A stretch of DNA of 64,000 bases from NCBI GenBank assembly GCA_964645485.1, contig CAZXZO010000002.1:74212-138211 (forward strand). Direction: 5' to 3'. Both the position numbers and the translations under genes were made by a program. The notes below the pieces were generated by a model. That model was given only the letters and a program-made list of their open reading frames with translations. It had not been told where the DNA came from and did not search any database. Positions 832 to 62,636 of this stretch are shown here, piece by piece. How positions within the stretch are numbered: position 1 is the first letter of the stretch; each line of letters begins with the position of its first letter. Source of the stretch: an uncultured Candidatus Poseidoniales archaeon. GTDB taxonomy: Archaea; Thermoplasmatota; Poseidoniia; Poseidoniales; Thalassarchaeaceae.

Positions 832-884
832 AAGGGTGAGCCGCGCCACCGAGGGGTTGAATTAAACGGTTCCGATTCGGAATC

Positions 885-1523
885 TCATTCTTCTTCTTCG
901 AAGTCTTCTTCGTTTATTTCGCCTGAATTCAACTTTAGATATGATGGGAGTCCCATCAATTTGTCAAACGTCCGTGAAAGAATGAGCTCATCCAACCGGG
1001 GGCTTGTGCGTGCTAGGAATTGAACTGGTATGTTGATTACACCGTTTTCTAATCTGTATCTTCTTCTTAGATTTCCTCTAGCCTTTACTTGTACGCCGCG
1101 ATATGTGCGCTTAATTTTGACTAGCCCAATGACTACGCCGAGGTCTTCACCCTGGGTGTCAAGAACTGCTCTGTCAAGTAGTTCATCGGGGGCGTATAAT
1201 TTTTCATTGATACGAACTGTGTTTCGCCATCTGCGTTGCAATTCCCTCATTGACTTCGTAAGTTTGATACTCCCATCCGACTGAATGCTGTGAAGGAGTT
1301 CTTTTGAAAGTGGAGCGAACTCAGCAGGCTTGCGCATAAATTCGTCCGCAACACCTGGCTCAACCTGTAATCTGAAAGATTGGACTCTTTCTTCATTGGG
1401 GTGATATCTCTCCCCCACTATTACTCCAACTCGCGTTTGTTTCACGTAAACTTCTCGTTGTAACAATTCCTGTATTCTAAATGATTCATCTGTCATATTT
1501 TTTCCCTCTCTATTACCGTGCAT
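885..1523 (-). CDS. Hypothetical protein with a probable C-terminal PRC-barrel domain
   Basis: 212-aa ORF (probable start ATG 1496); LLDRAVLDTQGEDLGVVIGL resembles the PRC-barrel signature L.G..V.d..G..lG.V; acidic tail EEDFEEEE. Confidence 0.5.
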   Translation of the reverse strand: MHGNREGKNMTDESFRIQELLQREVYVKQTRVGVIVGERYHPNEERVQSFRLQVEPGVADEFMRKPAEFAPLSKELLHSIQSDGSIKLTKSMRELQRRWRNTVRINEKLYAPDELLDRAVLDTQGEDLGVVIGLVKIKRTYRGVQVKARGNLRRRYRLENGVINIPVQFLARTSPRLDELILSRTFDKLMGLPSYLKLNSGEINEEDFEEEE

Positions 1524-2019
1524 CCCATGTCTCGGTCAATGTCCTACGCTCGGAGTCAGTATATTAACTATCTGCCGAATAACTAATCAGATATTCAATT
1601 GAAAAAGACGGATAATCATGAATATACCAATTGGTTGTTATAAATTTGGACAATTGACCACATAATCAAAATTCAATTGAATCTACTGGGGATATGCATT
1701 TAATTTACCAATATGAATAGCCTGTTTAGAATGATTATCCGAATAAGTTTTCCAATAGGAAAGACGGATAATACTAGCGACTTCCCATTTTGCAGGAATT
1801 ATCTCTTTTGGTCCCGTAGTTTTCCAAAATTATTCGCTGTTTCCAATATAAAATCCTAAAAAAATTCTCAAAATGATTTTTCTTCACAATTGACAAGATT
1901 TTATTCGATAAGTTAATGATCGGATGGCACATTTTTTTTAATGAAACTACCAATTGAAAAATAGATAATTCAATTGGATAATTTGGGCATATAATTCATA
2001 ATTTCCACAATAATATATC
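1524..2019. promoter_or_regulatory. Long AT-rich intergenic region with repeated motifs (divergent regulatory region or candidate origin)
   Basis: No ORF; hand counts of two 60-nt lines give 22-28% GC; CAATTG at 1596, 1628, 1651, 1674, 1887, 1951, 1971; 13-bp direct repeat AAAGACGGATAAT at 1604 and 1760. Confidence 0.5.
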
Positions 2020-3582
2020 TTGCTCTACTCACAGCATAAATTGATGAGTGCACTCCTCTTCCCAATTCACATGGAAGATTCGTTCTTGTCTTTGTTAGAT
2101 GAAATTCGGAAGAGGTCAGGACCCCGCCAAACTGTTGGCTTGAAGGACTCGGTCATCACTGAATTTGCTGCATCAGATCAAAATCTTGTAGACGCCATTT
2201 CAGAAGCATCAAAAAATCACCAAGATTACTCGGCTGAATTTGGTCCAGATTTTTTAATGATGGATGAGTCGGAATTAATCAAAACCTTGCAATCAGATTT
2301 CATAAATTTTTATCCTTCTGCAACAGTGAATCCCTATGTTGCAATTGCTGCTCGTGGCCCTTGGATAATCACTTCACATGGAGCTGTTGTCCACGACAAC
2401 GGTGGATATGGGATGTTAGGTGGTGGTCATGGCCCGAATAATGTCATCAACGTCATGTCAAAAAATTGGGTTATGGCAAATGTCATGACTGCTTCTTTTA
2501 GCCAGAAGAAGTTAACCGATGCATTACGCAGAGAAGTTGGTCATACTCGGGGCACTTGTCCCTTTTCAAAATTCATCTGTGTAAATAGTGGATCTGAATC
2601 AGTGACACTCGGTATGCGAATTGCTGATGTAAATTCCAATAATATGACTGGTCCAGGTGGACGTCATGAAGGTAAACCGATTAAGATAATCGCATTGAAA
2701 CAAGGATTCCACGGTAGAACACAACGACCGGCTTCAATATCGGATTCTTGTAAAAAAGGATACATAGATAATCTTGCTACTTTCAGAAAGCGGGATAATG
2801 TTATCATCGTAGAACCAAACAATGTTGAAGAATTACAATCAGCATTTTCAAGAGCTGAGGAAGAGAACTTTTTCATTGAATTATTAGCCTTAGAACCAGT
2901 GCAGGGTGAGGGCTCTCCTGGACAAGCAGTAACTCGTGAGTTTTACGATGAAGCAAGAAGGTTAACTTCCGAACATGGAAGCATGTTGTTAGTTGATTCC
3001 ATACAGGCTGGATTCCGCGGCAAAGGCTGTCTTTCAATTGTCGATTATCCCGGATTTCAATCTGCTGAAGCCCCAGACTTAGAGACATGGTCAAAAGCAC
3101 TCAATGCTGGGCAATTCCCTCTTTCTGTTGTAGGATTATCAGAGCGTGCTGCGCAATTGTACGTTGTTGGAATTTATGGAAATACCATGACAACAAATCC
3201 CCGTGCACTCGAAACAGCAATAGAAGTACTCGACAAGATTACTCCAGAAGTACGGCAAAACATTGTTGAAAAGGGAGATGAATTTCTCACAAAACTTGCA
3301 GGATTACAGAAAGAATTCCCTAATGAAATCACCCTAGTTCAAGGTTCAGGTCTGCTTCTGTGCGTAGAATTAGATCCAGAGACTCTTCCTGTTATTGGCT
3401 TTGATTGTGTAGAGGAGTGGTGTAGATTAAACGGCCTTGGTGTAATTCATGGCGGAAAGAATGCACTCAGATTCACCCCTCACTTTGGAATAACATCCAA
3501 AGAGATTGATTTGATAGTAGACTTGGTTAGATGTTGTCTGATTGAATTTACAATGGGTAAAGTGCATCAAATTGCAAAATAA
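2020..3582 (+). CDS. Class-III PLP-dependent aminotransferase (acetylornithine / lysine 6-aminotransferase-like)
   Basis: NSGSESV, GFHGRT, LEPVQGEG, LVDSIQAG and WSKALNAG (catalytic Lys) class-III motifs; probable start ATG 2044 or 2071. Confidence 0.85.
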   Translation: MLYSQHKLMSALLFPIHMEDSFLSLLDEIRKRSGPRQTVGLKDSVITEFAASDQNLVDAISEASKNHQDYSAEFGPDFLMMDESELIKTLQSDFINFYPSATVNPYVAIAARGPWIITSHGAVVHDNGGYGMLGGGHGPNNVINVMSKNWVMANVMTASFSQKKLTDALRREVGHTRGTCPFSKFICVNSGSESVTLGMRIADVNSNNMTGPGGRHEGKPIKIIALKQGFHGRTQRPASISDSCKKGYIDNLATFRKRDNVIIVEPNNVEELQSAFSRAEEENFFIELLALEPVQGEGSPGQAVTREFYDEARRLTSEHGSMLLVDSIQAGFRGKGCLSIVDYPGFQSAEAPDLETWSKALNAGQFPLSVVGLSERAAQLYVVGIYGNTMTTNPRALETAIEVLDKITPEVRQNIVEKGDEFLTKLAGLQKEFPNEITLVQGSGLLLCVELDPETLPVIGFDCVEEWCRLNGLGVIHGGKNALRFTPHFGITSKEIDLIVDLVRCCLIEFTMGKVHQIAK

Positions 3583-3614
3583 AGTGTTAATCATCAGTTT
3601 AGTGTAATGGGAAA

Positions 3615-4310: not shown

Positions 4311-4325
4311 TGCAATTTTGTATTT

Positions 4326-5339: not shown

Positions 5340-5363
5340 GCCGCCTCAAAATGAATACAGCGG

Positions 5364-6254: not shown

Positions 6255-6300
6255 AACCTGACCTTCAGAGGCTCATTGTTTTCAAAATGACCGATTTGAG

Positions 6301-8709: not shown

Positions 8710-8731
8710 TCACAATTGATGACCCTTCAAT

Positions 8732-9460: not shown

Positions 9461-9469
9461 TTCATCACC

Positions 9470-12470: not shown

Positions 12471-12524
12471 CTATGAAACATCAAGGAGAGATATTCAAAC
12501 AAATTCACCCAGATTATTCCACAT

Positions 12525-13805
12525 TTGGTAACCGCGTTATTCATGAAGGGACCCCCCTCATCACAACCCATGGAGGGAGCCGGTACAGAGTGTGACGTCT
12601 TGGTCATTGGCGCCGGGCCTGGCGGTGGTGCTGCGGCTTTACACAGTGCAAGAGAAGGTCTCAATGTCATCCTAATCGAAGATCATGACGAGATTGGGAC
12701 TCCCGTACATTGCGGAGAATGTATATCGGATTTAGCCGTAAACAACCTAAAACTTGAACTTCCAGATTCAGTAATTTCACGTCCTGTTGATGGTATTAGA
12801 GTACTGTTTCCGGATGGAACGGCAAAAAAATTAAGTGAACCGGGATACGTTCTAGAAAAGCACTTGTTTGAGCAGTGGTTAGCAGCGGAAGCAGTTGAAG
12901 CGGGCGCACAATTACACCTATCACACAAGTTGACAGGCCTTGAGCGTCAAGAAAATGATGGTGTTTTCAGCGGTTGGATTTGCCAGGGTAAGGGGGACCA
13001 ATTTCCAATTACAGCTAAGATTGTAATTGATGCCTCTGGCGTTGCTGGAGTATGCTCAAAAATTTTGCAATTAAACCCCCGTCCTAAAGTGGTTGCAGGG
13101 ATGCAATATGAGGTACTAGAAGTTCCAACAGATGGTTACTTGGATTTCTATATTTGGCCAAAATATGCCGAAAAAGGTTATCTTTGGATGATACCAAAGG
13201 CAGATGGAAGGGCTAACATTGGGTTAGTTACAGAGAATAAAAAGGGTGCTGTAAAGGCACTAGACCAATTCATAGAAAATGGGGAATTCAAGGGATTAGA
13301 AATGATCAATCCGCCCTGGCGGAAAGAAGGAATGAAACTGCGAGGTTTTGGCGGAACTATACCAATTTCCGGGCCACATGAAGTCACTCATACAGATGGA
13401 ATAATGCTGATTGGTGATGCGGCTGGTTTCACTTCACCTCTGTTTGAAGGAGGTTCTCATTTGGCTTTGAAATCAGCATCATTTGCAGCTCAGACTGCGG
13501 CTGAAGCAATCGCTGCTGGAGATATAACCGCTTCCAAGTTAGCCATATATTCATCCAAATGGAAAAGAGAGTTTCCACCATATGAAAAAATACTGAGAGG
13601 AAAAACAGCCTTGTATTCACTCAGTGATTCTGATATGTCAGTAATGGGCAAATGTTTCCCAGAAGAAATGTCTTCGATGGGAATATCTGGAAAGGCAATG
13701 GTTGGAATCCGCCTACTTGTTAGAAGACCTAGTTTATATTTCAAGAAAATAGTTCCAGCGATGTTGGCTTTTGGTTATAGCCGGGCTAAATACTATGGCT
13801 GGTAA
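12525..13805 (+). CDS. Geranylgeranyl reductase-family FAD oxidoreductase
   Basis: VIGAGPGG, PVHCGEC, GYLWMIPK, LIGDAAG; probable start ATG 12570. Confidence 0.85.
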   Translation: MVTALFMKGPPSSQPMEGAGTECDVLVIGAGPGGGAAALHSAREGLNVILIEDHDEIGTPVHCGECISDLAVNNLKLELPDSVISRPVDGIRVLFPDGTAKKLSEPGYVLEKHLFEQWLAAEAVEAGAQLHLSHKLTGLERQENDGVFSGWICQGKGDQFPITAKIVIDASGVAGVCSKILQLNPRPKVVAGMQYEVLEVPTDGYLDFYIWPKYAEKGYLWMIPKADGRANIGLVTENKKGAVKALDQFIENGEFKGLEMINPPWRKEGMKLRGFGGTIPISGPHEVTHTDGIMLIGDAAGFTSPLFEGGSHLALKSASFAAQTAAEAIAAGDITASKLAIYSSKWKREFPPYEKILRGKTALYSLSDSDMSVMGKCFPEEMSSMGISGKAMVGIRLLVRRPSLYFKKIVPAMLAFGYSRAKYYGW

Positions 13806-24636: not shown

Positions 24637-26847
24637 CTAAAATATTGTAATACCGAAGGAAACTGACTCATATCCTAATGCGATAAATCCAGTGATTAAA
24701 TATCCTAGAATACTACCTCCATTGAGTAAAGGTAACCCTGCTTGAGGGCGGCCCATCGCAACGTACCCCATTAGAGCTAAGTAACCAAGAAGACCACCAA
24801 TAAGCGAGCCTAATGCCACAAACATAGGATCACTCAATCCCATGATAGTTCCACCAGATGGCAGGAATGTCAGGGCTGATATGACTAACATGCCAGGGAA
24901 AATGACATCACCTAATCCCATGAATAACGCATCACCGGTATTTTTCTTAGGGGCCGGGCGGGGCGGTTCTGGAGGAGGCGCTTTAGCACCACTCTTCGGT
25001 CCACTATCCTTCATTGGGGCAACGGGTGGCCCATCCATCTTACTGATTGTGTCTTCACCCTCGTCAAGGAAAGAGTATCCCTTATCTTGAGGGGCGACTA
25101 ACAATATTGGGAGTTTGAGCCCTATCATCGTGTCCGCAAGGTCAAGCATGTGCTTCGATTTGTAAACCGCATACCAATCATAAATTGCGGCTACAATCAT
25201 GAAAATCAGAATTAATGTTGGAACAAAACTTACCCCAATAATGGTAATTACGCCAGCACCAGTTAAAATTCCGGTAGTGTTCACTATGTACCATTCGGGC
25301 CTGATTGTAAGAGCAATCATCAGTATAGTGGAAGCGACTAAAGCGACTATTTGTGACCAATAAATTGGTAACCAGTATCCAGCCGAATCTTGGAGAATTA
25401 TTGCAGGGTCATTCACAGGCGTAGCAATTATTGCACTTTGAGTGGTGTTTACAGTATAGGTTGTAAGCACACCATCTTCGATATCGATTTTATCCCAAGC
25501 AGGAACATCGATAGTGTGGATTATCATGTCGATTGACCCGTCTGAAACAGGTCCATCAATGATTAGACTCTCAACCATTACCCAACCTGAAAACATCCGA
25601 GTTTCTCCTCCGGATGCAATCCAAACATCAACTCTTCCATCATGTTGGTCGTCAGCAAGCATTATGCCTTGGATTTCAGAATTAAATGCATCACGTTCGT
25701 TGAATTTAATATGTTCTTCAACATTCATTTCCACACCATCCCAGACAAAGCCGTAGACTTTTCCTTTCTCAGTTCCTAACATCAACAAACTGTCAGTTGA
25801 GTTTTCACTCCACCATTTGTATCCACTCCATGGAGAGTGGCCAAAGGCCGAGGCAGTGAATGCGTCTCCTGAATTTGGGGTGACTTGCCAAAGAATTGAC
25901 GCATTAAAATCTCCAAATTCACCGGTGTGTGGCTCATCTGGAATATCAACGATTCCAGCCCAACCAAATGAGACCAATAGTAGAGTGTTATCATTGAGCA
26001 TACTGCCCTGCATAAATTCCCCTGAGGTGAATTGTTCGGGTAGGTTGTAGGCCCAACTATGGCTTGGAATATCAGGGTGGAAGGGGTCAACCTTATGGAT
26101 CACATTGTTGTAGATAGCCCAGTCATTTTCTTGCGAAGAAAAACCAGCAACGCAGGTGACATCTGTATGGTTTGTGAGTGGGGTGCCATCAGACTTGTCT
26201 AAAGATTGCCACCGATTTCCATCACACATTACATATGAGTCAAGATTGTCAACAATCGCGGTTCCTAAGGCTGAAAAACCACCATCCCGATAGAGAGAGA
26301 AATCCCACTCCACCTTTGCAGATTGCCCTCTTTCTAATCCACTTGGTTCACTCATTTTGATTAGATGAGTTCCGTTGGAGACTATGAAAGAAGAAGGTTC
26401 GTAATCAACGAAGAGAAAATCAGCGTCAAGTTCCATTTCATCACGATATTCGACTATCGGTTGTGCTTCATCCATAGCAAAAGATGCTAGAGGAATCATC
26501 GCATAGGAAAGAGAAATCCAGAGAACAAACAGCACTCCCCATTTGATAATTGATTGGAGTCCTCTTTTGGCTAACCAGATGATAAAAGCAGTAAATACTA
26601 GAATCAGAATAAATTCCAAGCCGATTAAACCTACTTTAGTGGTTCCTGCCTCACCAAATGCTCTCGCTTCTGGCCTATCCCAGAACGGCTGAATGTAGAT
26701 AGCAAGCAATATTGTGCCAACAAACATCGCGCCCATAGTAGTCATTGAGCGCCATTGGTCAGCCATCAAAGAAAGGATGTTTGCAAAGCGACTCTCACCG
26801 GTCATGACTACGGCGAGAGTGAAAACCCATTTGAAAGCGAGGGTCAC
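24637..26847 (-). CDS. Presenilin-family (A22) intramembrane aspartyl protease with a large inserted ectodomain
   Basis: IYDWYAV (YD), MGLGDVIFP (GxGD), RPQAGLPLLN (archaeal PAL equivalent); ~365-aa hydrophilic insert after TM3; probable start ATG 26805. Confidence 0.9.
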   Translation of the reverse strand: MTLAFKWVFTLAVVMTGESRFANILSLMADQWRSMTTMGAMFVGTILLAIYIQPFWDRPEARAFGEAGTTKVGLIGLEFILILVFTAFIIWLAKRGLQSIIKWGVLFVLWISLSYAMIPLASFAMDEAQPIVEYRDEMELDADFLFVDYEPSSFIVSNGTHLIKMSEPSGLERGQSAKVEWDFSLYRDGGFSALGTAIVDNLDSYVMCDGNRWQSLDKSDGTPLTNHTDVTCVAGFSSQENDWAIYNNVIHKVDPFHPDIPSHSWAYNLPEQFTSGEFMQGSMLNDNTLLLVSFGWAGIVDIPDEPHTGEFGDFNASILWQVTPNSGDAFTASAFGHSPWSGYKWWSENSTDSLLMLGTEKGKVYGFVWDGVEMNVEEHIKFNERDAFNSEIQGIMLADDQHDGRVDVWIASGGETRMFSGWVMVESLIIDGPVSDGSIDMIIHTIDVPAWDKIDIEDGVLTTYTVNTTQSAIIATPVNDPAIILQDSAGYWLPIYWSQIVALVASTILMIALTIRPEWYIVNTTGILTGAGVITIIGVSFVPTLILIFMIVAAIYDWYAVYKSKHMLDLADTMIGLKLPILLVAPQDKGYSFLDEGEDTISKMDGPPVAPMKDSGPKSGAKAPPPEPPRPAPKKNTGDALFMGLGDVIFPGMLVISALTFLPSGGTIMGLSDPMFVALGSLIGGLLGYLALMGYVAMGRPQAGLPLLNGGSILGYLITGFIALGYESVSFGITIF

Positions 26848-29331: not shown

Positions 29332-29367
29332 CGTTCAAAGCAATAACGGCAATAACCAAGAATTGAA

Positions 29368-32300
29368 TCATGCCCAAAATCTTCTTGTTCTAGCATAATT
29401 GAGTTCAGCTTCGTGAATAATCTTCAGCATTAATTCTCGTTCTCCTTTTGGAACTCTGTTGAGAATACGGGACGCGGTTTCTTCTCCAACTCCTCGAGCC
29501 ATCAAGCAAATGAGTGCTTCAATGCCCCTTTGCCGGACAATGTGAGCATTTTTCTCCATTCTTGCCTGTACTGTCTGGTCTTCTGAAGCAACCCAACCTG
29601 CCAACATTTCTTCTAATCCTTCGCGGCTTGCAGCAAGCATGGTTCCCCCACAATCACAATGGGTATGCTTGGCTCCATACATGGCTACGCGAGTCCGCAT
29701 GCGCGAGGCACAAGCCAAACAGATTAGCACAGCTCTTTCGTTCACTAAGCGCTCTTCTAGACGAACCCTGACTTCAGCATCTGACCAATTTGGTAATAGC
29801 AGGTCTTTTTCACTTCGTGGAGAAATCCCTAGAGGACCAGAAGCGGTTTGTTCTATTCGGACTGCACCTGCTTGAATAGCCTCTAGCAGCGCTACTGTGC
29901 CATCAATATCCATTTGGTCATGGAATAATTTATCCAAAGCCTCGTCAAGAACAACTGTGCCTCGATAGCGATTAATGATTCCTTGAAGGTTTACACGTCG
30001 CGGGTCGACACCTCGTTGTAGTATTCCAAAAATTTTGCACACTTGCACTAACCTTGCGCGAAGTTTCCTTCCATTAGGAATCGTCATTCGCATAATGTCT
30101 CGTAAGGCCTCGGGTGGAGTTTCAGTCAGCCAAGTAACCATTGAATCTGCAGTTAATGCTGGAACTTGCAGTGAAATTCGGTAAGGGTCGATGATGGCTC
30201 GCCCACTTTTTCCGTCAATTGTAGACGCCATCGCTTGCAAAAAATGTGCCAGTGCTGCATTCACTTTATTGCCATGGCAACAGTTGAGCACTAGAGCATC
30301 TCGACGGGCCTCAACAGTGAGAAGTCTAGCATTAGGTATGCATCCAGTAGCATCCAAATGTTCTCCAATACTTGTTGTGAGAATACCAAGTGAATGGTCA
30401 GATACAGGATACTTTGAGAGTTTGTGTTTGTCAGGTAACTCTTCGAGCCAAGCGTTAACCTTTGGCCCAAAATTCTCATCCTTAGGATATTCCACATCCC
30501 ATCTATGGTCATCTGCAATTACCATTCTAAGATTGCCCACTTCACGAGCGATGTCTGCTGGGACTGCTGGCAATTCTCCAGCCCAGACTGGGGCTGTACT
30601 GATATCAGAAATTGGAGCGACCAACAACTCGCTTTTCTCTGGGTCAGCATCAATGATTTGCCAAGTCCTTCCCGCCATCACAAATCGGCGAGGTGAACCA
30701 TCTTCTTCCCCACCCGATGAATCTAATGACAACACAAAGGTTTCATCCACATTTCCTAAAGGTCTACGCGAAACCGAATCGCGAACAGAGTAACGTGTTT
30801 CGTCAGCGATCATGGAGAGGTGGTTTAGCATGTAATGGCGACTTCGCGAGCCTGGTGAGAACCATCCGTTCTTGAGGTTCTTTGGAAGAGTAGAGCGCAA
30901 GGCCTTCGACCAAGTCTCTCGCTGTTCGTCGGAAACCCCCTCAAGTTCTTCTCGCTTAGGTCTTTTTTCGGGCAAATCTTTGTTTTTCTCTGCTGCATTT
31001 TGCCAGATAATCGGTGGCCAATCAATTGGGTCAGAGTTGACTGGTTTTTCAACTAATTTTAGCAACCTCCTATCGTCAAGGATTGTGATGATTTCGTGAA
31101 TTTCGCTATCGGTAATATCAGAGAATATAGGAGCCCTACGAAGTAAGGTTGCTGCTGATGAGAGCGGGATTACTTTTTCAGCAATCGCAGTCAAAATTAG
31201 TTGGTTTGCAACTACCGAGAGTGGTTTTCTACGCCATTCGACTCCTTCTAGTTGGCTAGACATAGCCCGCCTGGTGATTACAGCAGATTCAGCGATGTCA
31301 TCATTTTCCCAACACAGTAGCATCCCTCTTGATGTGCCTCCCAAAACGTGCTCAGCCCTGCCAACTCTTTGCAGCAACCTGTCTACAGCGCGTGGCGACT
31401 GAACTTGATGCACTTGTTTGATTGAGCCTACATCAATTCCTAATTCAAGACTTGAAGTGCAGACAAGTCCATGCAGATTTCCTTTCTGCAATTCAGATTC
31501 CATTTCTTGCCGAGTTTCGGCTGCCAAGGAACCGTGATGAACCCCTATATTCAACCCTTCATCGAGTTTACTTATTCTTTGAGCAACTGTTTCAGCGGCG
31601 TTTCTAGAGTTTACAAATATCAAGCAAGGAGCGCTTTCCTTTACTTTTGATGCTAAGCGGCGAAGAGCCGCGAGACCTCTTGGCGAAACATGGAGTTCTA
31701 GTGAAAGTGCACGGTCTTCTGCAGTAGTTGGTTCGGTCACAACTTGCAGTTCAGCAGGTCGTGGTGCAGGCGCATTGATTGGGGTGGCAGTTGGTGAAAG
31801 CCAACCAGCCATTTCATCAGGATTCCCCACAGTTGCAGACAACCCAATTCGTTGAACACGTCGGCCACATAATTCATCTATCCTCTCTAGAGCAACAGTC
31901 AATTGTGCACCTCTTTCAGAAGCCGCTAAATCGTGCACCTCATCAATCACAACTGCTCGGAGATTGCTCATGCCTTCTCTTAGTCGACTACCAAACAACA
32001 GTAATTGGCAAGTTTCTGGGGTGGTGACAAGAAGGTGAGGAGGGTTACGAGATTGTTTTGTTCTCTGTGATTGGGTTGTGTCTCCATGACGAACATCAGA
32101 ACGTAAGCCACACGCCTGAGATAATGACTCAATTCTCCGGTCAATATCTCGGTTCAAGGCCCGTAGTGGGGTGATGTAGAGAATACACATTGGTTGCCAT
32201 TTTTGTGTGATGGCGCGAGATAATAATGGCATCACTGCCGCTTCGGTTTTACCGCTTCCTGTGGGTGCTATTAGCAAGTGGTCTGAGCCATCAAGAATCT

Positions 32301-32397
32301 GTTTTTGCGACGCCGCTTGGATTGGCGTCGGGCTCCAACCTCTATCCTCAGCGAGTTGAGAGAGGGAATCTGCGAGCGCACTGAAATCAGACAGCAA
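29368..32397 (-). CDS. lhr: Lhr-like SF2 ATP-dependent helicase
   Basis: APTGSGKT, PLRALNRD, RHGDT, TTPE, DEVH, GLSAT, HHGSL, SSLELGID, QRVGRA; C-terminal CxxC...CxC zinc finger. Confidence 0.9.
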   Translation of the reverse strand: MLSDFSALADSLSQLAEDRGWSPTPIQAASQKQILDGSDHLLIAPTGSGKTEAAVMPLLSRAITQKWQPMCILYITPLRALNRDIDRRIESLSQACGLRSDVRHGDTTQSQRTKQSRNPPHLLVTTPETCQLLLFGSRLREGMSNLRAVVIDEVHDLAASERGAQLTVALERIDELCGRRVQRIGLSATVGNPDEMAGWLSPTATPINAPAPRPAELQVVTEPTTAEDRALSLELHVSPRGLAALRRLASKVKESAPCLIFVNSRNAAETVAQRISKLDEGLNIGVHHGSLAAETRQEMESELQKGNLHGLVCTSSLELGIDVGSIKQVHQVQSPRAVDRLLQRVGRAEHVLGGTSRGMLLCWENDDIAESAVITRRAMSSQLEGVEWRRKPLSVVANQLILTAIAEKVIPLSSAATLLRRAPIFSDITDSEIHEIITILDDRRLLKLVEKPVNSDPIDWPPIIWQNAAEKNKDLPEKRPKREELEGVSDEQRETWSKALRSTLPKNLKNGWFSPGSRSRHYMLNHLSMIADETRYSVRDSVSRRPLGNVDETFVLSLDSSGGEEDGSPRRFVMAGRTWQIIDADPEKSELLVAPISDISTAPVWAGELPAVPADIAREVGNLRMVIADDHRWDVEYPKDENFGPKVNAWLEELPDKHKLSKYPVSDHSLGILTTSIGEHLDATGCIPNARLLTVEARRDALVLNCCHGNKVNAALAHFLQAMASTIDGKSGRAIIDPYRISLQVPALTADSMVTWLTETPPEALRDIMRMTIPNGRKLRARLVQVCKIFGILQRGVDPRRVNLQGIINRYRGTVVLDEALDKLFHDQMDIDGTVALLEAIQAGAVRIEQTASGPLGISPRSEKDLLLPNWSDAEVRVRLEERLVNERAVLICLACASRMRTRVAMYGAKHTHCDCGGTMLAASREGLEEMLAGWVASEDQTVQARMEKNAHIVRQRGIEALICLMARGVGEETASRILNRVPKGERELMLKIIHEAELNYARTRRFWA

Positions 32398-40921: not shown

Positions 40922-40995
40922 AGGGGTTGCTCTCCACTGTCCTCTTTGAACCTGCGCGTCAAGGGTGATACAGAGCCCTCATAGGTGAGTACTCC

Positions 40996-41210: not shown

Positions 41211-41894
41211 TCAAAGCCTAAATTTTTTGACCCATTCTTCTGGCTCTCTTTGTTCAAGAATTGTTTTTTGTTCTTCTTCTATTTTCAGCGTCTCAGCTTT
41301 TTCTGTCCAAGCGTTTGCTTTCGAGCGAAGAGTTTGTGCAGTTTGTGCATAACTATCCGAATCACGGCAAAGTAATGAAAGAAATTTGTGAAGTGGAAGC
41401 CCTTCATCCCAGTCCAAGTGTGGTGTACCATTTCTCGTCAAAGGTAGTGAAGGTAAGCGTCGAGATAATATTGAAACCGAACCGGTCAAATTAGTAGTTT
41501 CCACCTTGAAAATCCGCCACGAATCACCCCTCACTCCTTTCAGTCTCATTGCATATAATGGCATTAAGCCACAACGCTCGCCTTCTTTTTGTAAATCGAG
41601 GTACTGCTCCATAGTTCTTCCAGAGAGATAGACCTTTTTTTCCTTGGTAGTTTTCACTTCAATAGGAAATGAAATATCACCTCGAACCGCTATCAAATCA
41701 CCTGCTCCGGCAACTCCACTTCCGGCAGCACGAACAACCAAAAATGGTCTTCTGATAACTTGCATTGCCCTTGCTTTCTCAGAGGCGTTACAACTTCTTG
41801 TAACAGCCCTGACTCCATCAGGTGAACCAATCAGAACTGCGCGCAGTTCGCGCTCATAATGAGAAGCCATCGTTGAGCACGCTAATCCATTCAT
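41211..41894 (-). CDS. hjc: Archaeal Holliday junction resolvase Hjc
   Basis: YERELR, VRAAGSG, GDLIAVR, IEVK (PD-(D/E)xK); probable start ATG 41870. Confidence 0.85.
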   Translation of the reverse strand: MNGLACSTMASHYERELRAVLIGSPDGVRAVTRSCNASEKARAMQVIRRPFLVVRAAGSGVAGAGDLIAVRGDISFPIEVKTTKEKKVYLSGRTMEQYLDLQKEGERCGLMPLYAMRLKGVRGDSWRIFKVETTNLTGSVSILSRRLPSLPLTRNGTPHLDWDEGLPLHKFLSLLCRDSDSYAQTAQTLRSKANAWTEKAETLKIEEEQKTILEQREPEEWVKKFRL

Positions 41895-41977
41895 TCAAGA
41901 CAATGCCGGCGAGATTTGCTTATCGCGCATCGTTTCTGATAGAAATTGGCTAAATCGGGTCACATCTACCGGAACCA

Positions 41978-42948: not shown

Positions 42949-43989
42949 TCAGATAATTTTGAGATCTGATTGTTTCTTATTTGCTAGTTGTTCTAGCAGA
43001 TTGTCAACCACGATTTGGAATGCATTAGAGGAGTCTCCATCAGGGTCAGCCACAATTCGGTGTACCCCATCATCTCCTCCTCTAACTATACCTGGGTCAA
43101 ACGGTAATTTTCCAAGGAATGGTACCATCAATTCCTTGGCCGCGGCTTCACCTCCACCACTCTTGAAAAGGTCTAGAACAACCGCCCAATCTCCTTCCTC
43201 ATCAGTTTGAACGTTCATACTAACTCCTTGAGGGCCTTGGACTGTAATTTTTGAGGATGGTTCAGCAGTGCCACGTAAGTTGAATCCACTCATGTTTTCA
43301 ACAACTCCTAGGCAAGGGAGTTTAAGCGTCTTAGCGAAGTTAATCGATTTCCGACTGTCAAGCAGTGCAACATCTTGAGGGGTTGTAACTACAACTACTC
43401 CATCTATTTCTGGAAGTGACTGAGCAACTGTGAGAGGCTCGTCTGAAGTTCCCGGTGGGAAGTCAATGATTAGGGCATCCAATTCGCCCCAAGCAACATC
43501 ACCGATGAATTGCTGGATTGCACCCAACTTTACCGGTCCTCTCCAGATGACCGGTGCATCTTCGTCTTCTAGAAGAAATGCCATTGAGATTACTTTGACA
43601 CCAAATGGACCTTCAACAGGATATATTTGCCCTTCTTCAACTTGTAAATCTGCGCCAGAAATCCCAAGCATTTTTGGGATATTTGGGCCAGTAATGTCGA
43701 TATCCATTATACCGACTTTTTTGCCTTGTTGAGCGAGAGCCAATGCCAACCCGGTGGCAACAGTAGATTTTCCTACTCCACCTTTGCCTGAAAGGACCAT
43801 GACTTTGTGTTTAACATTCTCAGCCAGTTGCGTCATTCTTAGTTTACGTCGCATTTGGGCATATGCCTGTTCCATCTGCGCCTTCTGTTCATCAGATGCG
43901 GCTTCTGGCTCTTGCTCAGGGGTTTTTCCATCATGATGGGAGACTGGTGAATCACTCATTGTCGGGGCGACATTGCGGTCATTCTTCAA
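42949..43989 (-). CDS. mrp: Mrp/NBP35/ApbC-family P-loop ATPase lacking the CXXC motif
   Basis: SGKGGVGKST, DIDITGP, VIWRGP, DFPPGTSD, VTTPQDVA, ENMS, LGKLPFDP; probable start ATG 43959. Confidence 0.85.
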   Translation of the reverse strand: MKNDRNVAPTMSDSPVSHHDGKTPEQEPEAASDEQKAQMEQAYAQMRRKLRMTQLAENVKHKVMVLSGKGGVGKSTVATGLALALAQQGKKVGIMDIDITGPNIPKMLGISGADLQVEEGQIYPVEGPFGVKVISMAFLLEDEDAPVIWRGPVKLGAIQQFIGDVAWGELDALIIDFPPGTSDEPLTVAQSLPEIDGVVVVTTPQDVALLDSRKSINFAKTLKLPCLGVVENMSGFNLRGTAEPSSKITVQGPQGVSMNVQTDEEGDWAVVLDLFKSGGGEAAAKELMVPFLGKLPFDPGIVRGGDDGVHRIVADPDGDSSNAFQIVVDNLLEQLANKKQSDLKII

Positions 43990-44110: not shown

Positions 44111-46258
44111 ATGGCAGGAACAGCAGTTTACATCACTTGGGTAACTGCCTCTTTACTCGGCGGGATTCTATTGATGCCGATTTTCCGTCCTGCTGGAAAA
44201 CGAGTTACATTGGCTGGATTTGTTGATATGTTTCGCCGCTACTGGCTACATATTGCATTAGTTTTCAGCATCTATGTTTGGAAAGATTTGCTTGATGGCT
44301 TAGACCGTATTTTGATGGCTAATACCCACCTCAATATGACGCCATTTGTTTATGCTATTGAGGGCGATTTAGTTTTGTTGGTCCAACAGACATTCCTCAA
44401 TGAGATGTTGACTTTTGTCTTGACTCATTATTATGTTGCAGGTTATATGCTATTGACATATACGGCCTCACTCTATTTCACATATTTTGATGACCGCTGG
44501 ATGGCAGATAGAGTCTTGTTATCGATGTTCTTTGTCTATGCGCTAGCAGTGCCCTTCTACCTATTCTTCAATGTTAGAGTGACGGGAGACCATATTCCTG
44601 AAATGGAAACTTTGGCCTATCACCTTACCCCGGAGATCCAAACTTGGTTCACGAGGATTGACCCGTTCACAAATGGCATGCCTAGTCTTCACATTGGTAT
44701 TCCGTTCACTGTATGGTTGGGACTTCATCGTTGGGACCACGATGAAAGATGGAAGAAATATCGGCAATTTGTCGGTGTCTATATCCTAGTCACAGCATTT
44801 ACAATCATCTATCTTGGAATCCACTGGTTTGTTGACATCATTGGTGGGATAATTGTATCCTTCTTTGCGGTTAACTTAGCAGATAAGTATCATGCTTGGT
44901 TGTGGTATCGGTTTGATGAGAGAACTTTCAATGCCAGAGTTGCATGGTTGTTAGCAGATTTCAACAATCCAAAACGAGTTCTATCTAGTTGGATTTCTAG
45001 ATCATTAAATTGGTTGAAAACACCATCAACAGCACAAACTGGAACAGTCGTGATGTTGCTGCTAGCAACAACTGGAGGAGTGCTGTTGTATGATGCAACT
45101 CACCAAGATTTCCCAGCCGAGGGAGTAACTCATCCAGAAGCGGCTGCAGGTGCTGACGGCTGGTTAGTTGCACTTGATGCAAACGAAAATGGTAACTTAA
45201 GTGCGGTCATAATTGATATTGAAAACGATAGAACATATCACGATAGCCTCAATTTGAACGAGGATGGTAATCAATCACAATGGGGTGTTGTAAACGCGTC
45301 AACAGAAGTGTTGATTTCAGAAAATCATGCAATCGTTTGGCAAGGTTACAGGATAATTACTCTGAAGTTCTCAAATCCAGGCTCTCACGCCTATGGTAGG
45401 ACGACAGGTCCACTGTACACCGACCTTGCTCTTCTCGATGACTCAGAAGATGAGCGAGCCAAGTTATTCGCGATTGATGATGGTGTAGTAATTGACTTGC
45501 AAAGCACAGAATATAATGAGGTATTCACACCAATTCCTGATGATGATGTAATTCTCATTGATGGGGGTGGGAATAGTTTAGCTTGGGTTACCCAGAGTTC
45601 ACCAATGACTGCCAATATCCTCTCACTAGATGGTGTGCAGAGTAGTCTATCTGTTGAAGTCAATGTTACTGTTGATTCAGCAAAAGATGAACAAGTGCTA
45701 GCACTCACTGGTACCAACGTTGACTACGTGAACGCGAGTATAACTGGAATTGCATTTGACAAAAATCACATAGTAGCCGAGGTGAATTTGTCAGCAGTTA
45801 GCCGTTTAGTTTTGGTGAATCTTGATACGGGAGAGCAGCGAATTATCGGTGACCCTCTTTTCCCTGTAGCAAACCCTTCAATTGGCCATGGTGTGGTTGC
45901 TTGGCAACATAAGTGGGGGCTCAATTCAATAGACCCAAATAATGCTGAGTTAGACTGGGATGTGAAGTATCACATTATCTTGGAAAATCATTCCTATCAA
46001 CTTCACACTGAGGATGAGTTGAACCAGACTGAGCCACAGGTCATGGAAGGATACATTGCTTGGCTACAAGATAGTGGTGGTGAAGAACCACCAGAGGTGA
46101 TAATTTACAGCCTTGAGGAAACATTTGAGCCGTATTCATCGCGAACTTTGCAAATAGCGATAATTGCTCTAATCCCTCTGTTATCTCTATGGATGATTCA
46201 AAAACAAAGAGAAAATTTGGATTCACTAGACGAAGATTCACCCGACGAAGAAGAATGA
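44111..46258 (+). CDS. PAP2/AUR1-like membrane phosphotransferase fused to an extracellular beta-propeller domain
   Basis: N-terminal multi-TM domain with MPSLHIG and LGIHWFVDIIGG; then a ~350-aa hydrophilic domain with (I/V/L)(A/V)W repeats, a C-terminal TM and an acidic tail. Confidence 0.75.
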   Translation: MAGTAVYITWVTASLLGGILLMPIFRPAGKRVTLAGFVDMFRRYWLHIALVFSIYVWKDLLDGLDRILMANTHLNMTPFVYAIEGDLVLLVQQTFLNEMLTFVLTHYYVAGYMLLTYTASLYFTYFDDRWMADRVLLSMFFVYALAVPFYLFFNVRVTGDHIPEMETLAYHLTPEIQTWFTRIDPFTNGMPSLHIGIPFTVWLGLHRWDHDERWKKYRQFVGVYILVTAFTIIYLGIHWFVDIIGGIIVSFFAVNLADKYHAWLWYRFDERTFNARVAWLLADFNNPKRVLSSWISRSLNWLKTPSTAQTGTVVMLLLATTGGVLLYDATHQDFPAEGVTHPEAAAGADGWLVALDANENGNLSAVIIDIENDRTYHDSLNLNEDGNQSQWGVVNASTEVLISENHAIVWQGYRIITLKFSNPGSHAYGRTTGPLYTDLALLDDSEDERAKLFAIDDGVVIDLQSTEYNEVFTPIPDDDVILIDGGGNSLAWVTQSSPMTANILSLDGVQSSLSVEVNVTVDSAKDEQVLALTGTNVDYVNASITGIAFDKNHIVAEVNLSAVSRLVLVNLDTGEQRIIGDPLFPVANPSIGHGVVAWQHKWGLNSIDPNNAELDWDVKYHIILENHSYQLHTEDELNQTEPQVMEGYIAWLQDSGGEEPPEVIIYSLEETFEPYSSRTLQIAIIALIPLLSLWMIQKQRENLDSLDEDSPDEEE

Positions 46259-48642: not shown

Positions 48643-49254
48643 GTGTTTGGGACAGTCGTGAAGCGACTCCTGTTCCTGACTGGTAACGCGGGTAAGTTGG
48701 CTGAGGCTAGCCATTTTTTTGAACCGCTTGGATACCATGTGGAACAGTTCCTCATAGATGGTGAGGTTCCTGTTGTCGTAGAGCCGCAATCAGACAATTT
48801 GAAGGATGTTGCAATCGCAAAAATTGAACAAGCAAAAGCATTGTTAAATCAAAGTGGCCAAAATGCCGCAATCTTTGTCGAAGATGCGGGTCTTTTTATT
48901 GATGAATTAGGTGGATTTCCTGGTGTAAATTCAGCCTCAGTCTTAACCCAAATTGGCCTTTCAGGAATTCTCAAATTGATGTCAGATGTAGCCAATCGCG
49001 GGGCAGAATTTCGCGCGAAAGCAGTACTATTTACTGGTGAAGAATTAGTGTTCGGTGAAGGGATTTGCCGTGGCACAATAACTACTGAAACACTTGGTGA
49101 GTTTGGTTTTGGTTATGACCCAATTTTTACGCCAGATGGAGAGGCTTCAGGTAGTACTTTTGGGCAGATGGATAAGTCTGCAAAAGAGGCATTTTCACAT
49201 CGGGCAAAAGCCCTTGAAAGCATAAAAAAGCAGTTGGATTTGCTTGGGCGATGA
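48643..49254 (+). CDS. rdgB: Non-canonical purine NTP pyrophosphatase (RdgB/HAM1)
   Basis: TGNAGK, EDAGL...L.GFPG, GFGYDPIF, SHRAKAL. Confidence 0.93.
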   Translation: MFGTVVKRLLFLTGNAGKLAEASHFFEPLGYHVEQFLIDGEVPVVVEPQSDNLKDVAIAKIEQAKALLNQSGQNAAIFVEDAGLFIDELGGFPGVNSASVLTQIGLSGILKLMSDVANRGAEFRAKAVLFTGEELVFGEGICRGTITTETLGEFGFGYDPIFTPDGEASGSTFGQMDKSAKEAFSHRAKALESIKKQLDLLGR

Positions 49255-50160: not shown

Positions 50161-50164
50161 TAAT

Positions 50165-55075: not shown

Positions 55076-55089
55076 GAGAGGTGAAATGA

Positions 55090-56187: not shown

Positions 56188-56203
56188 GACGGGGGGGTGA
56201 AAA

Positions 56204-57748: not shown

Positions 57749-57755
57749 TGAGATA

Positions 57756-58651: not shown

Positions 58652-58652
58652 T

Positions 58653-60312: not shown

Positions 60313-60366
60313 GGTTTCTCTCTCCTGAATTGTTAACAGACTATTTCCCGTATAGACACTTTGTCC

Positions 60367-61824
60367 TCAACGTTGAATCGCCTTCAATTCTAGGAATTCT
60401 TGTAACCCATGAATACCTAGTTCTCTTCCATTACCTGACATCTTGTATCCACCAAATGGCGCGGAGATATTGAAAGGACCTCCGTTAATACTCACTTGGC
60501 CGGTTCGCAAATTTTTTGCAAAAGCCAACGCTCTATCCTCATTTTCAGACCATACTCCTCCAGAGAGTCCATACTCTGAATCGTTGGCTAGAGCAAGAGC
60601 CTCTTCTTCACTACTGTAAGTGGTGATTGTAAGGAGTGGGCCAAATACCTCTTCGTTCCAAATTTTCATGTCAGGTGTCACATCTGCAAAAGCAGTTGGT
60701 TTGACGAAAAATCCTGTGTCAAGTCCGTCTGGCATCCCCTCGCCACCTGCTAGTAGAGTGGCACCTTCTGAAATCCCGCTAGCAATGTAGCCGCTAACAC
60801 TTGCTTGTTGTCTTGCAGATGCCATTGGGCCACAGCGTGTGTTTTCATCCAAAGGGTCTCCCGCAGTAAACCCGGCAACTCGACTAGTAACGATTTCAAT
60901 AATTTCCTCCTTTTTATTTTCAGGAACGATGAGTCTGGTTAGAGCGGAGCAGGTTTGACCAGAGTTAGCAAAACAGGCACCAACTGATGATTTTGCGGCT
61001 CTGACAATGTTAGCATCATCCAAAATGACATTTGCGCTTTTACCACCAAGTTCGAGTGTGACTCGTTTTACTGATGGTGCAGCAGCCTGACTCACTCTGA
61101 CTCCAGCAGAAGTCGAGCCAGTGAATGATACCATATCGACGTCTGGGTGGCTTGAAAGATATTCACCAACATCTGACCCATGGCCGCTGACGAGATTGAA
61201 TACACCAGCAGGCAAGCCAATCTCGTCAATGATTTCAGCCAAAATGAAGGCGTTTAGAGGTGCTTCCTTTGATGGTTTTAGAACCATGGTACAGCCTGCA
61301 GCAATTGCAGGGGCGACCTTGCCAATAATTTGGTGTAGGGGAAAATTCCACGGGGTGATAAATGCACAGACTCCAACAGGCTCTTTGACAATTAGAGAAT
61401 TACGCACCTCTTCTTCCCACTCAAAGTCCTCCAACATCTTGGCGTACGAGCGGGCGACCACACGCGGGGTCCCAACCATTGCCATTCTGCTATAGCCGAT
61501 TGGTGTGCCAACTTCTGCTGTGATAAGTTGGGAGAGTTCTTCACCTCGGTCTTTGAAGGCTGCTGAAAGAGCATTTAGATAGCCGATTCTATCTTCAATA
61601 GAACTTTCTGACCAAGAAGGAAAAACAGCAGATGCGGCATTCACTGCAGCATCCACATCAGATTGAGACCCCACCGGTACTGAACCAATGACTTGTTCAG
61701 TTGCTGGATTGACAACATCAATTTCACCTTCTCCGCTTGCCTTAACCCATTCTCCATTGATGTAGAGTTCCTCTCTGCTCATCATGTGGTGTGCCACAGT
61801 GCAATCTCTTATGGTTTCATGCAT
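60367..61824 (-). CDS. NAD-dependent aldehyde dehydrogenase
   Basis: ITPWNFP, KPS, FTGST, LELGGKS, NSGQTCS, EEVFGP, YGLSG, PFGGYKMSG; probable start ATG 61785. Confidence 0.95.
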   Translation of the reverse strand: MHETIRDCTVAHHMMSREELYINGEWVKASGEGEIDVVNPATEQVIGSVPVGSQSDVDAAVNAASAVFPSWSESSIEDRIGYLNALSAAFKDRGEELSQLITAEVGTPIGYSRMAMVGTPRVVARSYAKMLEDFEWEEEVRNSLIVKEPVGVCAFITPWNFPLHQIIGKVAPAIAAGCTMVLKPSKEAPLNAFILAEIIDEIGLPAGVFNLVSGHGSDVGEYLSSHPDVDMVSFTGSTSAGVRVSQAAAPSVKRVTLELGGKSANVILDDANIVRAAKSSVGACFANSGQTCSALTRLIVPENKKEEIIEIVTSRVAGFTAGDPLDENTRCGPMASARQQASVSGYIASGISEGATLLAGGEGMPDGLDTGFFVKPTAFADVTPDMKIWNEEVFGPLLTITTYSSEEEALALANDSEYGLSGGVWSENEDRALAFAKNLRTGQVSINGGPFNISAPFGGYKMSGNGRELGIHGLQEFLELKAIQR

Positions 61825-62636
61825 TTCAAGAGGGGGAACCTCAACGGCTATTCATGGCACTAAGTGTTGAGAGGTTAGAAGGCGGAGTTGCATTAGTGAC
61901 ACTGACTGCAGAATCTGCTCAAAATGCGTTTAGTATTGAGGCCATGACAACAATTTCAACAACTATCAATTCACTAATTGACGATGAAGAAATTCAAGCA
62001 TTTGTCCTCACCGGCACAGGCAAGTTTTTCTGCGCAGGTGCAGATATCAATGAGTTTAGAGAATGTTATGACGATGATACAATTTCTGACTTAGTCCAAG
62101 GTTTAACAGATATTTTACATCCCTTATTGGTTAGAATCAGACAATCAGATACAGTCTATGTGGCGGCGATGAATGGCGCTGCAGCAGGTGGCGGATTGGG
62201 TCTTGCATTAGCAGCTGATTACCGGATGGCAATTCCACAAACCAAAATCGCAGCCGCCTTTTTCTCATTAGGCTTGAGCCCTGACGGAGGAACTACCTGG
62301 TTGCTGCCAAGGCTAGTTGGTCCACAGAGAGCCAAGAAGTTCTTCTTCAATAACGAAACATGGTCAGGTGAACAAGCGCTAGAACTTGGAGTAATTGATG
62401 AGTTAGTTGAGCCACAGGACCTGATACTTAGTTCTCTCAAAATAGCAATTTCTTGGGGTAAGTGGGCTAAATCGAGTAGAGCGGGGACCAAGCAATTGCT
62501 AGACAGCCAATCCTACCAAGATTTCGAAACCCAACTTCATGATGAACAGGTACGAATCGTTGCAGCAAGCCAAACAAAGCAATTTTCAGAAGGGGTGGAT
62601 GCATTTATTGAAAAGCGCGATCCAAATTTTCAATGA
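61791..62636 (+). CDS. Enoyl-CoA hydratase/isomerase (PaaG-like)
   Basis: FCAGADI, AAAGGGLGLALAAD, GLSPDGGTTWLLPRLVG; probable start ATG 61854. Confidence 0.85.
   Translation: MPQCNLLWFHAFQEGEPQRLFMALSVERLEGGVALVTLTAESAQNAFSIEAMTTISTTINSLIDDEEIQAFVLTGTGKFFCAGADINEFRECYDDDTISDLVQGLTDILHPLLVRIRQSDTVYVAAMNGAAAGGGLGLALAADYRMAIPQTKIAAAFFSLGLSPDGGTTWLLPRLVGPQRAKKFFFNNETWSGEQALELGVIDELVEPQDLILSSLKIAISWGKWAKSSRAGTKQLLDSQSYQDFETQLHDEQVRIVAASQTKQFSEGVDAFIEKRDPNFQ

Follow-up and report, generated by a model that had tools for sequence, protein, structure and literature searches.

Background

The archaeal TATA box (TTTAWATA) lies about 26 nt upstream of the transcription start site (TSS) in Sulfolobus, Methanocaldococcus and Pyrococcus/Thermococcus. 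The A/T-only TATA box is among the most conserved DNA signals of archaea and eukaryotes, and the minor-groove contacts made by the TATA-binding protein (TBP) exclude G:C pairs from its core. In this work we examine a G/C-containing box in the Poseidoniales (Marine Group II), an uncultured order that is among the most abundant archaea of the surface ocean. The analysis follows up a stretch of 64,000 nucleotides from a Candidatus Poseidoniales archaeon of the family Thalassarchaeaceae (assembly GCA_964645485.1, contig CAZXZO010000002.1, positions 74212-138211; hereafter, the window), for which a preliminary description had listed ten hexamers beginning with TT(C/G)AA at a fixed distance before gene starts and had read them as TATA boxes with C or G at position 3 that serve leaderless transcripts. 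We use the term S-type box for TT(C/G)AW, with G or C at position 3, and A/T-type box where this position is A or T. Our results make it probable that TT(C/G)AW(R) is the basal TATA-box equivalent of Poseidoniales.

The Poseidoniales promoter resembles the canonical archaeal promoter in its position relative to the gene start (-30 to -23), its 8-bp frame, the 3' half AWATA of strong promoters, a transcription factor B (TFB) recognition element (BRE) upstream of the box and the presence of both TBP and TFB. The two differ at position 3, which is T in the canonical box and is C or G in 66-83% of Poseidoniales boxes. The canonical box was recovered by the same pipeline in three other Thermoplasmatota genomes and at the TBP gene of the Poseidoniales themselves. 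Haloarchaeal promoters combine a BRE of CGAAA and a TATA element of TTWT with mostly leaderless mRNAs (Babski et al. 2016, PMC4983044). Like the Poseidoniales, they have a BRE that contains CG and is placed in the same register, a short box of low information that begins with TT and many leaderless transcripts starting on the ATG, but they keep A/T at position 3 at about 65% GC whereas the Poseidoniales box carries C/G at 44-52% GC. Group D of GeneMarkS-2, to which all 11 Thermoplasmata genomes of that study were assigned, combines leaderless starts, which have a promoter box at a distance of about 26 nt, with genes led by Shine-Dalgarno sites (Lomsadze et al. 2018, PMC6028130); this is the same dual layout as that of Poseidoniales, but without the description of a G/C-containing box. 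Our search of the literature on Marine Group II or Poseidoniales in combination with TATA, promoter or leaderless found nothing relevant on Marine Group II promoters. The BRE/TATA architecture with leaderless starts is known, and it is the C/G consensus and its lineage specificity that are new.

Positional signal upstream of gene starts

The assembly that contains the window comprises 1.94 Mb in 55 contigs (43.9% GC, about 90% coding), and all results below refer to it unless another genome is named. The gene set consisted of the 1350 open reading frames (ORFs) of at least 100 aa that passed a codon-usage filter, with the first ATG taken blindly as the start. With the starts fixed in this way, TT[CG]AA began 21, 40, 21 and 17 times at positions -31, -30, -29 and -28, a total of 99 against 34 expected, so that a non-canonical box at a fixed distance before gene starts, as the preliminary description had claimed, persists when the starts are chosen in advance. 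In-frame internal ATG codons used as decoys showed codon periodicity alone and no peak. A blind positional scan of all 4- to 6-mers gave TTGAA, TCAAG, TTCAAG and TTGAAG as the sole words, other than Shine-Dalgarno words, enriched upstream of genes, all of them at -31.

The level of chance hits depends on how the start codon is chosen. The background of 8.6 occurrences of TT[CG]AA per position per 1350 genes corresponds to about 2.5% of genes in a 4-nt window when the start is fixed beforehand, and the free choice of any ATG, GTG or TTG within 200 nt raises the chance of a hit in any 4-nt offset window to 10-13% per gene. With free choice, 229 genes genome-wide matched at the spacing of the preliminary description against about 153 at control offsets, and within the window 14 of 49 genes matched, compared with a mean of about 5 (range 0-9) over 16 control offsets. 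The chance rate of about 1% per gene that had been estimated earlier was too low, by ten times for freely chosen starts, and the accompanying caveat about selecting starts after the fact was well placed: at such a rate roughly a third to half of any hand-picked list is expected to be chance, and the original list is indeed diluted by such hits.

Two other approaches were set aside. An annotation-free test that looked genome-wide for an ATG at a fixed offset after every k-mer was too noisy, TTGAA and TTCAA having about 10,800 occurrences each; and motif discovery with an order-0 background found aTTGAAg on top of a large uniform floor that came from the abundance of the word in coding sequence, and was superseded by an order-3 background and a narrow positional window. 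The arrangement of a shared, bidirectional box between divergent genes with ATGs about 56 nt apart was ruled out genome-wide, since divergent gene pairs showed no spacing peak (4 of 232 pairs at 53-59 nt, none with TTSAA between them).

The words themselves are unevenly distributed in this genome. TTGAA and TTCAA occur about twice as often as expected in coding and intergenic DNA alike, and TTSAW is strongly frame-dependent inside genes. In coding DNA, TTTAA and TTAAA are about 4-fold under-represented, at 0.42 per kb where base composition predicts about 1.7, and in intergenic DNA they are 2-fold under-represented.

Motif and promoter architecture

Motif discovery was carried out by expectation-maximisation (EM) under a model of zero or one occurrence per sequence, with an order-3 Markov background trained on positions -100 to -46 and with the motif allowed only near -30. 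Canonical TTTAWATA, TTSAA and random seeds all converged to the same matrix, g.aa..T(.62) T(.95) [C.38, G.40, A.13, T.08] A(.89) [A.58, T.35] [A.40, G.35], with the first T at -30 and about 21% of genes carrying the motif. The consensus is cG.aa..TTSAWR. C or G occupies position 3 in 78% of the boxes and about 20-25% keep A/T there; an A/T-only TATA box of 8 bp therefore fails at this position, while the others fit (T2.95, A4.89, W5.93). Counts that depend on no model agree: at -31 to -29 we found TTCAW 62 times against 19.3 expected, TTGAW 77 against 25.3, TTAAW 26 against 10.6 and TTTAW 19 against 8.5, so that C/G accounts for 78% of the excess. The 3' half of the box holds weak information in average promoters, and strong promoters read TTGAAATA, TTCAAATA or TTGATATA at -30 to -23, one base off the canonical TTTAWATA. 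Avoidance of TAA in coding sequence was considered as the cause of the C/G and rejected: the proportions at position 3 are unchanged where the box region has no overlap with another called gene, and are the same at tRNA and rRNA promoters. The near variants ATCAA that had been pointed out before crcB and rdgB did not hold up, as ATSAW is not enriched at -30 (40 observed, 33.5 expected).

The box is linked to a BRE-like element. C at -7 from the box was found 63 times against 9.8 expected and G at -6 51 times against 10.9 (about 5-6-fold), followed by an A-rich segment, and the composite CG-N5-TTSAW peaks at -32 to -29 (37 against about 5). The same cG.aa element lies upstream of the box in both Poseidoniaceae genomes examined and in the genome of the sister order. 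CG at -7/-6 accompanies 22% of the S-type boxes but 5% of the A/T-type boxes and of the controls, and A/T-type boxes are instead A-rich at -5 to -3; the A/T-type sample amounts to 41 sites, about a third of them chance. There may be two flavours of BRE, alongside the two TFB genes described below.

The sharp peak at -30 from the start codon is accompanied by a depletion of Shine-Dalgarno sites, which precede 16% of the genes with a box at -30 and 25% of those without (p = 0.004); a control offset gave no such difference. Genes with a box at -30 make up an estimated share of 0.21 in this genome and 0.30-0.41 in three other Poseidoniales genomes. The strong Shine-Dalgarno sequence GGAGGTGA is found at -15 to -6 in a quarter to 40% of genes (examples in the window at 44111, 50165 and 56204) and also in about a third of the genes with a divergent upstream neighbour, so that this genome mixes presumably leaderless with Shine-Dalgarno-led initiation. 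The leaderless transcripts proposed in the preliminary description are supported in part: spacing, BRE and the lower frequency of Shine-Dalgarno sites agree with them for only about 20-35% of genes, and a quarter or more use GGAGGTGA.

A second element, GTCGG(C/G)GG, was observed genome-wide 18 nt downstream of the start of the box, at about -12 to -8 from the start point. There were 22 occurrences at -13 to -11 from first ATGs, where 2.3 were expected, and 45 cases of the 18-nt distance from box to GTCGG, compared with about 22. The element is carried, usually after a run of G (TTSAAATAGGGG), by the promoter of elongation factor EF-1α, by the putative 16S promoter and by those of at least 12 tRNA genes. 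The proximal promoter position of archaea, where Poseidoniales have this GC-rich element, is usually A/T-rich; the element is reminiscent of the GC-rich 'discriminator' of bacterial stable-RNA promoters.

Promoters independent of start-codon choice

Genes for stable RNA offer a reference point that does not depend on a start codon. Among the 34 tRNA genes, about 12 have TTSAA at -30 to -36 from the mature 5' end. The putative 16S promoter, about 240 nt upstream of the 16S gene (contig C10 of the assembly, about 32276-32305), contains TTGATATAGGG...GTCGGCGGG (TTGATATAGGGACGGCAGGTCGGCGGG). The EF-1α promoter, located on the same contig as the window about 49 nt before an ATG near 49,000, contains TTCAAATAGGGG...GTCGGCGGG (TTCAAATAGGGGTGGTCAGTCGGCGGG) and is followed by the Shine-Dalgarno sequence AAGGAG. 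The presence of S-type boxes at tRNA, 16S and EF-1α promoters indicates that highly transcribed genes use this type of box. The S-type box before putatively leaderless ATGs and the canonical box of the TBP gene share the coordinates -30 to -23; the tRNA boxes start at -30 to -36. The rhodopsin promoter was uninformative, because the Pfam rhodopsin profile had no match anywhere, control genomes included.

Distribution among Thermoplasmatota

The identical pipeline was applied to 340-400 kb of each of six other genomes. Three of them belong to the Poseidoniales. The Poseidoniaceae genome G026 (52% GC) gave g.ag..TT[C.51, G.32, T.17, A 0]AW with very sharp placement and C/G in 83% of boxes; the second Poseidoniaceae genome, G031 (52% GC), gave TT[C.38, G.30, T.31]AW with C/G in 68%; and G041, from a second genus of Thalassarchaeaceae (52.5% GC), gave T[A.19, C.34, G.32, T.15]AW with C/G in 66%. 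The three outgroups returned A/T boxes. G020, of the same class and another order (64% GC, with an ordinary TBP of 191 aa), yielded cg.aAgc.TTAaA / TTTAT and no TTSAA at -31 to -26, and the two other Thermoplasmatota yielded gaAAAatTTAtATA (G040, 39% GC) and aaAa..TttTaATaa (G045, 55% GC). The tRNA genes follow the same division, with TTTATA, TTTAA or TTAAA in the outgroups and TTGAAATA, TTGATATA and TTGAAAGG in Poseidoniaceae. Since the box is present in Poseidoniales at 44-52% GC and absent from outgroups at 39, 55 and 64%, the shift is specific to the order and independent of GC content, which we ruled out as its cause.

Conservation among orthologous promoters

The promoter of mrp was compared in 29 genomes of both main families. 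All have the box at -30/-31 from a conserved ATG, as TTGAAGTA in 25 and as TTCAA in 4 and with A/T at position 3 in none, while the flanks have diverged to the point of randomisation around the box that is kept. The orthologs of a site-2-protease-like (S2P) gene have TTCAA, TTGAA or TTGAT starting at -32 to -28 from the start codon in 24 of 29 cases, and the GTG start of the gene in the window is found also in the two nearest relatives. These footprints suggest that the S-type boxes of the mrp and S2P promoters are under purifying selection. Exchange of G and C at position 3 is seen at the presenilin-like promoter, which reads TTCAAATGG in the genome studied here and TTGAAATGG (CGCC-TTGAA-ATGGCC, at -30) in five relatives, and in promoter families of the TBP neighbourhood, where TTCAT and TTGAT replace each other within an otherwise conserved context; one promoter family (cluster 7) has TTGAT, TTCAT and TTAAT at one site. 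The uvrB box is kept only in the genome of the same genus (L260); the other genera have no box, and there uvrB directly adjoins or overlaps its upstream neighbour.

Promoters tend to keep their type, the TBP gene never being S-type and mrp and S2P never A/T-type. In about 75 Poseidoniales genomes, the gene for TBP is itself preceded by a perfect TTTATATA or TTTAAATA, placed exactly at -30 to -23 from the ATG (L001:1400-1480, contig C9 of the assembly; L007-L086), a conservation that may reflect autoregulation or the need for the tightest possible TBP site. About 55 nt further upstream of this box, a conserved palindrome, TTTTTCAATTGGAAAAT, was observed in Thalassarchaeaceae.

Taken together, fixed starts, EM seeded with the canonical box, the tRNA, rRNA and EF-1α promoters, four Poseidoniales genomes set against four outgroup or decoy analyses and the footprints bear out the earlier claim of a TATA box with C/G at position 3.

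TBP and TFB of Poseidoniales

The assembly encodes one TBP that scores with Pfam (contig C9) and two TFB genes (contigs C8 and C27). The TBP gene shows 95% identity to that of a Thalassarchaeaceae metagenome-assembled genome (MAG) and 88-93% to those of many Poseidoniaceae and Poseidoniales MAGs, which confirms that the genome belongs to Marine Group II. The Poseidoniales TBP keeps the canonical DNA contacts, namely the Asn and Val of S1/S1', both Phe of EQFPG, both Phe of L(I/M)F, the Val-x-Thr motifs and Leu. The altered TBP specificity that the preliminary description had raised is still conjectural.

Differences lie elsewhere in the protein. Comparison of 57 distinct Poseidoniales TBPs with 12 TBPs from other Thermoplasmatota revealed about 20 fixed substitutions, including E15V (beside the first Asn), S22R, T57L, K66R, A72G, D114A, G150P, L151F and C185I. 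In addition, all 57 carry an acidic, aromatic insertion of 27 residues (HYPEDYDGFDKWEPTKALAGEPRK-like) between S1' and H1' of repeat 2 (residues about 115-141 of the product of L001:1468-2097), which is absent from the 12 other Thermoplasmatota TBPs and from the TBPs in the PDB. An AlphaFold2 model of the TBP has an overall confidence score (pLDDT) of 90, with the insertion as an ordered coil at about 84. In structures of TBP-TFB-DNA complexes, repeat 2 lies over the 5' half of the box, position 3 included, beside TFB and the BRE, and this location is suggestive, though only suggestive, of a link between the insertion and the change at position 3. A yeast TBP of altered specificity, TBPm3 (I194F, V203T, L205V), reportedly recognises TGTAAA. 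It is similar to the Poseidoniales case in that altering repeat 2, where the Poseidoniales insertion also lies, lets a TBP accept G within the 5' half of its box, but it is a laboratory mutant with G at position 2, and the Poseidoniales have G/C at position 3 without the TBPm3 changes: the three corresponding residues are unchanged (I, V, L), the numbering being that of an alignment to the yeast sequence.

We also observed a degenerate paralog with a two-repeat TBP fold (L352:2308-2931, minus strand; contig C3 of the assembly), located between a gene of unknown function for a 260-aa protein and the gene for TatD. The product has 207 aa when read from a GTG and ends in an acidic tail. Three of the four intercalating Phe are missing, and neither the two EQFPG segments nor the repeat-2 Asn is present.

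Sites in the 64-kb window

All ten hexamers of the preliminary description are present where, and in the orientation in which, it had placed them. Those ahead of protein-coding genes were scored by log-odds with a position weight matrix (PWM) and compared with decoy starts, the decoy rate being the share of these with an equal or higher score. Overall, the mrp, S2P and presenilin-like boxes are secure, those of uvrB, rimK-like and paaG-like genes are likely, the kinase and hjc sites are weak, tRNA-Ile is ambiguous and ubiD is not supported.

The mrp-like box, TTGAAGAA, lies at 43984..43989 on the minus strand with its first T at -30 from ATG 43959, predicted to be leaderless (PWM 11.6, decoy rate <0.001, no decoy scoring 11 or more). 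The S2P box, TTCAAAGA (40945..40950, minus strand), has its first T at -29 from GTG 40921 (PWM 11.4, decoy rate <0.001). The presenilin-like box, TTCAAATG (26830..26835, minus strand), is at -30 from ATG 26805 (PWM 10.8, decoy rate about 0.001); the ORF can be extended to GTG 26847, ahead of which there is no signal. Two further likely boxes on the minus strand are that of uvrB, TTGAAGGG (8725..8730), at -30 from ATG 8700 (PWM 9.8, decoy rate about 0.004), and that of the rimK-like gene, TTGAAAAC (6280..6285), at -31 from ATG 6254, the first start candidate of its ORF (PWM 7.6, decoy rate about 0.015). On the plus strand, the paaG-like box TTCAAGAG (61825..61830) is at -29 from ATG 61854 in an ORF that opens at GTG 61791 (PWM 6.8, decoy rate about 0.03).

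The tRNA-Ile (GAT) gene identified by ARAGORN at 756..831 on the minus strand is served by a box at 856-866. Counted from the mature 5' end, TTCAAC (856..861, minus strand) starts at -30 and a canonical TTTAAT (861-866) at -35; the two share one base, CG lies at -7/-6 from TTCAA, and the box in use is ambiguous. The candidate of the kinase-like gene, TTGAAC (29333..29338, minus strand), scores 5.1-6.4 with a decoy rate of 0.03-0.07 per candidate start, ATG 29310 or TTG 29307. That of the hjc-like gene, TTGAAT (41893..41898, minus strand), scores 5.2 with a decoy rate of 0.07 for ATG 41870, which lies downstream of the first ATG of the ORF at 41894. Between two divergent genes, the sequence read as TTGAAT or ATTCAA (12493..12498) is at -28 from the ubiD GTG 12470, where its PWM score of 2.5 is indistinguishable from chance, and at -31 from TTG 12525 on the plus strand (PWM 7.6). 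For this plus-strand gene ATG 12570 is the likelier start, and the candidate box TTCATGAA (12540..12547, plus strand), which was not in the original list, has its first T at -30 from it (PWM 9.6). Another addition to that list, TTGATGAG (2041..2048, plus strand), is at -30 from ATG 2071 (PWM 10.4).

Proposed mechanism and alternative explanations

We propose that TT(C/G)AW(R) acts as the TATA box of the basal promoter of Poseidoniales in the following layout. A BRE-like element with C-37 and G-36 and then A-rich sequence would precede the 8-bp box at -30 to -23, which in strong promoters is TT[G/C]A[A/T]ATA and is often followed by a run of G and GTCGG near -12. The S-type box would be bound by the single TBP of canonical type, with its 27-residue insertion in repeat 2, together with TFB, and TFB would set the direction of transcription through the BRE; such a role would be needed because TTGAA read on the opposite strand is TTCAA. 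The predicted start point lies about 24 nt past the box; in leaderless genes (roughly 20-35% of genes) it would coincide with the A of the ATG, and for tRNA, rRNA and Shine-Dalgarno-led genes it would lie a few to tens of nt upstream of the gene. At position 3, G or C would be accepted at full strength, beyond mere tolerance.

Several observations count against this proposal. Set against the local background, the enrichment at position 3 is alike whichever of the four bases is present (2.2-3.2x), a consequence of TTSAW being itself more frequent than TTWAW in neighbouring sequence, even by about 4-fold in intergenic DNA (3.3 and 0.83 per kb per 5-mer). Relative to the background, position 3 therefore looks non-discriminating rather than C/G-preferring. 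The TBP gene strictly conserves a canonical TTTAWATA, and the intact canonical contacts of the TBP give no obvious structural reason for a changed preference. The proposed TSS and leaderless status are read from spacing, and the binding of the S-type box by TBP is predicted from sequence. Finally, the gene calls and starts are crude and self-made (ORFs of at least 100 aa, first ATG), and the outgroup sample is small, with 340-400 kb from each of one sister-order genome and two other Thermoplasmatota.

The canonical contact residues are also what would be expected if the S-type box were an ordinary suboptimal TATA sequence, bound weakly by an unchanged TBP, with recognition relying on contacts between TFB and BRE and G/C kept by stabilising selection for modest expression. 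The higher frequency of CG at -7/-6 with S-type boxes (22% against 5% for A/T-type boxes and controls), the perfect TTTAWATA kept by the TBP gene and the constancy of type at orthologous promoters all suit this explanation. However, the promoters that should be the strongest (about 12 of 34 tRNA genes, the putative 16S and EF-1α) are S-type, and boxes of this kind are missing from three other Thermoplasmatota genomes (39-64% GC), so that an ordinary TBP evidently does not support S-type usage elsewhere. We consider weak binding of this kind unlikely. Because the strongest promoters are S-type, our preference within the overall reading is that the basal machinery fully accepts G/C, and we give this about an even chance of being correct. 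A division of labour is a further alternative, in which the S-type/CG promoters would be read by the TatD-linked TBP paralog, or else by one TFB of the two, and TTTAWATA by the canonical TBP, comparable to the TBP-related factors of animals. A divergent paralog and two TFB genes do exist, the upstream elements differ between the two types of box, and no switching between S-type and A/T-type was found among orthologous promoters. Yet the paralog, with its acidic tail and without three of the four intercalating Phe, the repeat-2 Asn and both EQFPG segments, is a poor candidate for a DNA-bending factor that serves most promoters, tRNA and rRNA included; one promoter family has TTGAT, TTCAT and TTAAT at one site; and the A/T-type boxes number only 41, of which about a third are chance. 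We regard two factors as very improbable.

Less credible still is that TTSAA marks a regulon as the operator of a regulator, or is an artefact of composition or codon usage combined with starts chosen after the fact. The palindromic nature of the motif class, TTGAA and TTCAA at twice the expectation from base composition, their strong frame dependence in genes and the 10-13% of chance hits per gene with free choice of start speak for this explanation. The peak obtained with pre-fixed starts and missing at internal-ATG decoys, the presence of the motif at a fixed position before 100-280 functionally unrelated genes as well as tRNA, rRNA and EF-1α, its BRE/TATA register, and its conservation across the order and absence from outgroups have already largely refuted this explanation, and we attach hardly any probability to it.

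On the evolutionary side, we offer a tentative scenario, to which we give somewhat less than an even chance. The TBP system may have been remodelled at the base of Poseidoniales, with the ancestral, TatD-linked copy degenerating and a second copy gaining the insertion and about 20 fixed substitutions, a change with which the machinery would have come to prefer or fully tolerate G/C at position 3; promoters would form two conserved classes, S-type and canonical, which may differ in factor use or regulation. If this is true, it would be, to our knowledge, the first natural TBP with a preference for a core that is not A/T-only.

Conclusions

An abundant uncultured order with C/G in the core of its box, the tRNA, rRNA and EF-1α promoters included, represents a natural experiment on TBP specificity, and recombinant proteins allow the direct comparison of S-type and canonical boxes (TTGAAATA, TTCAAATA, TTTAAATA, TTAAAATA). 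Searches for canonical TATA boxes would miss about three quarters of Poseidoniales promoters. The consensus cG.aa..TTSAWR at -30, with the optional GTCGG at -12, should improve start-codon and operon calls and the annotation of promoters in Poseidoniales MAGs, and should also help in interpreting metatranscriptomes and in recognising promoters of the viruses of Poseidoniales.

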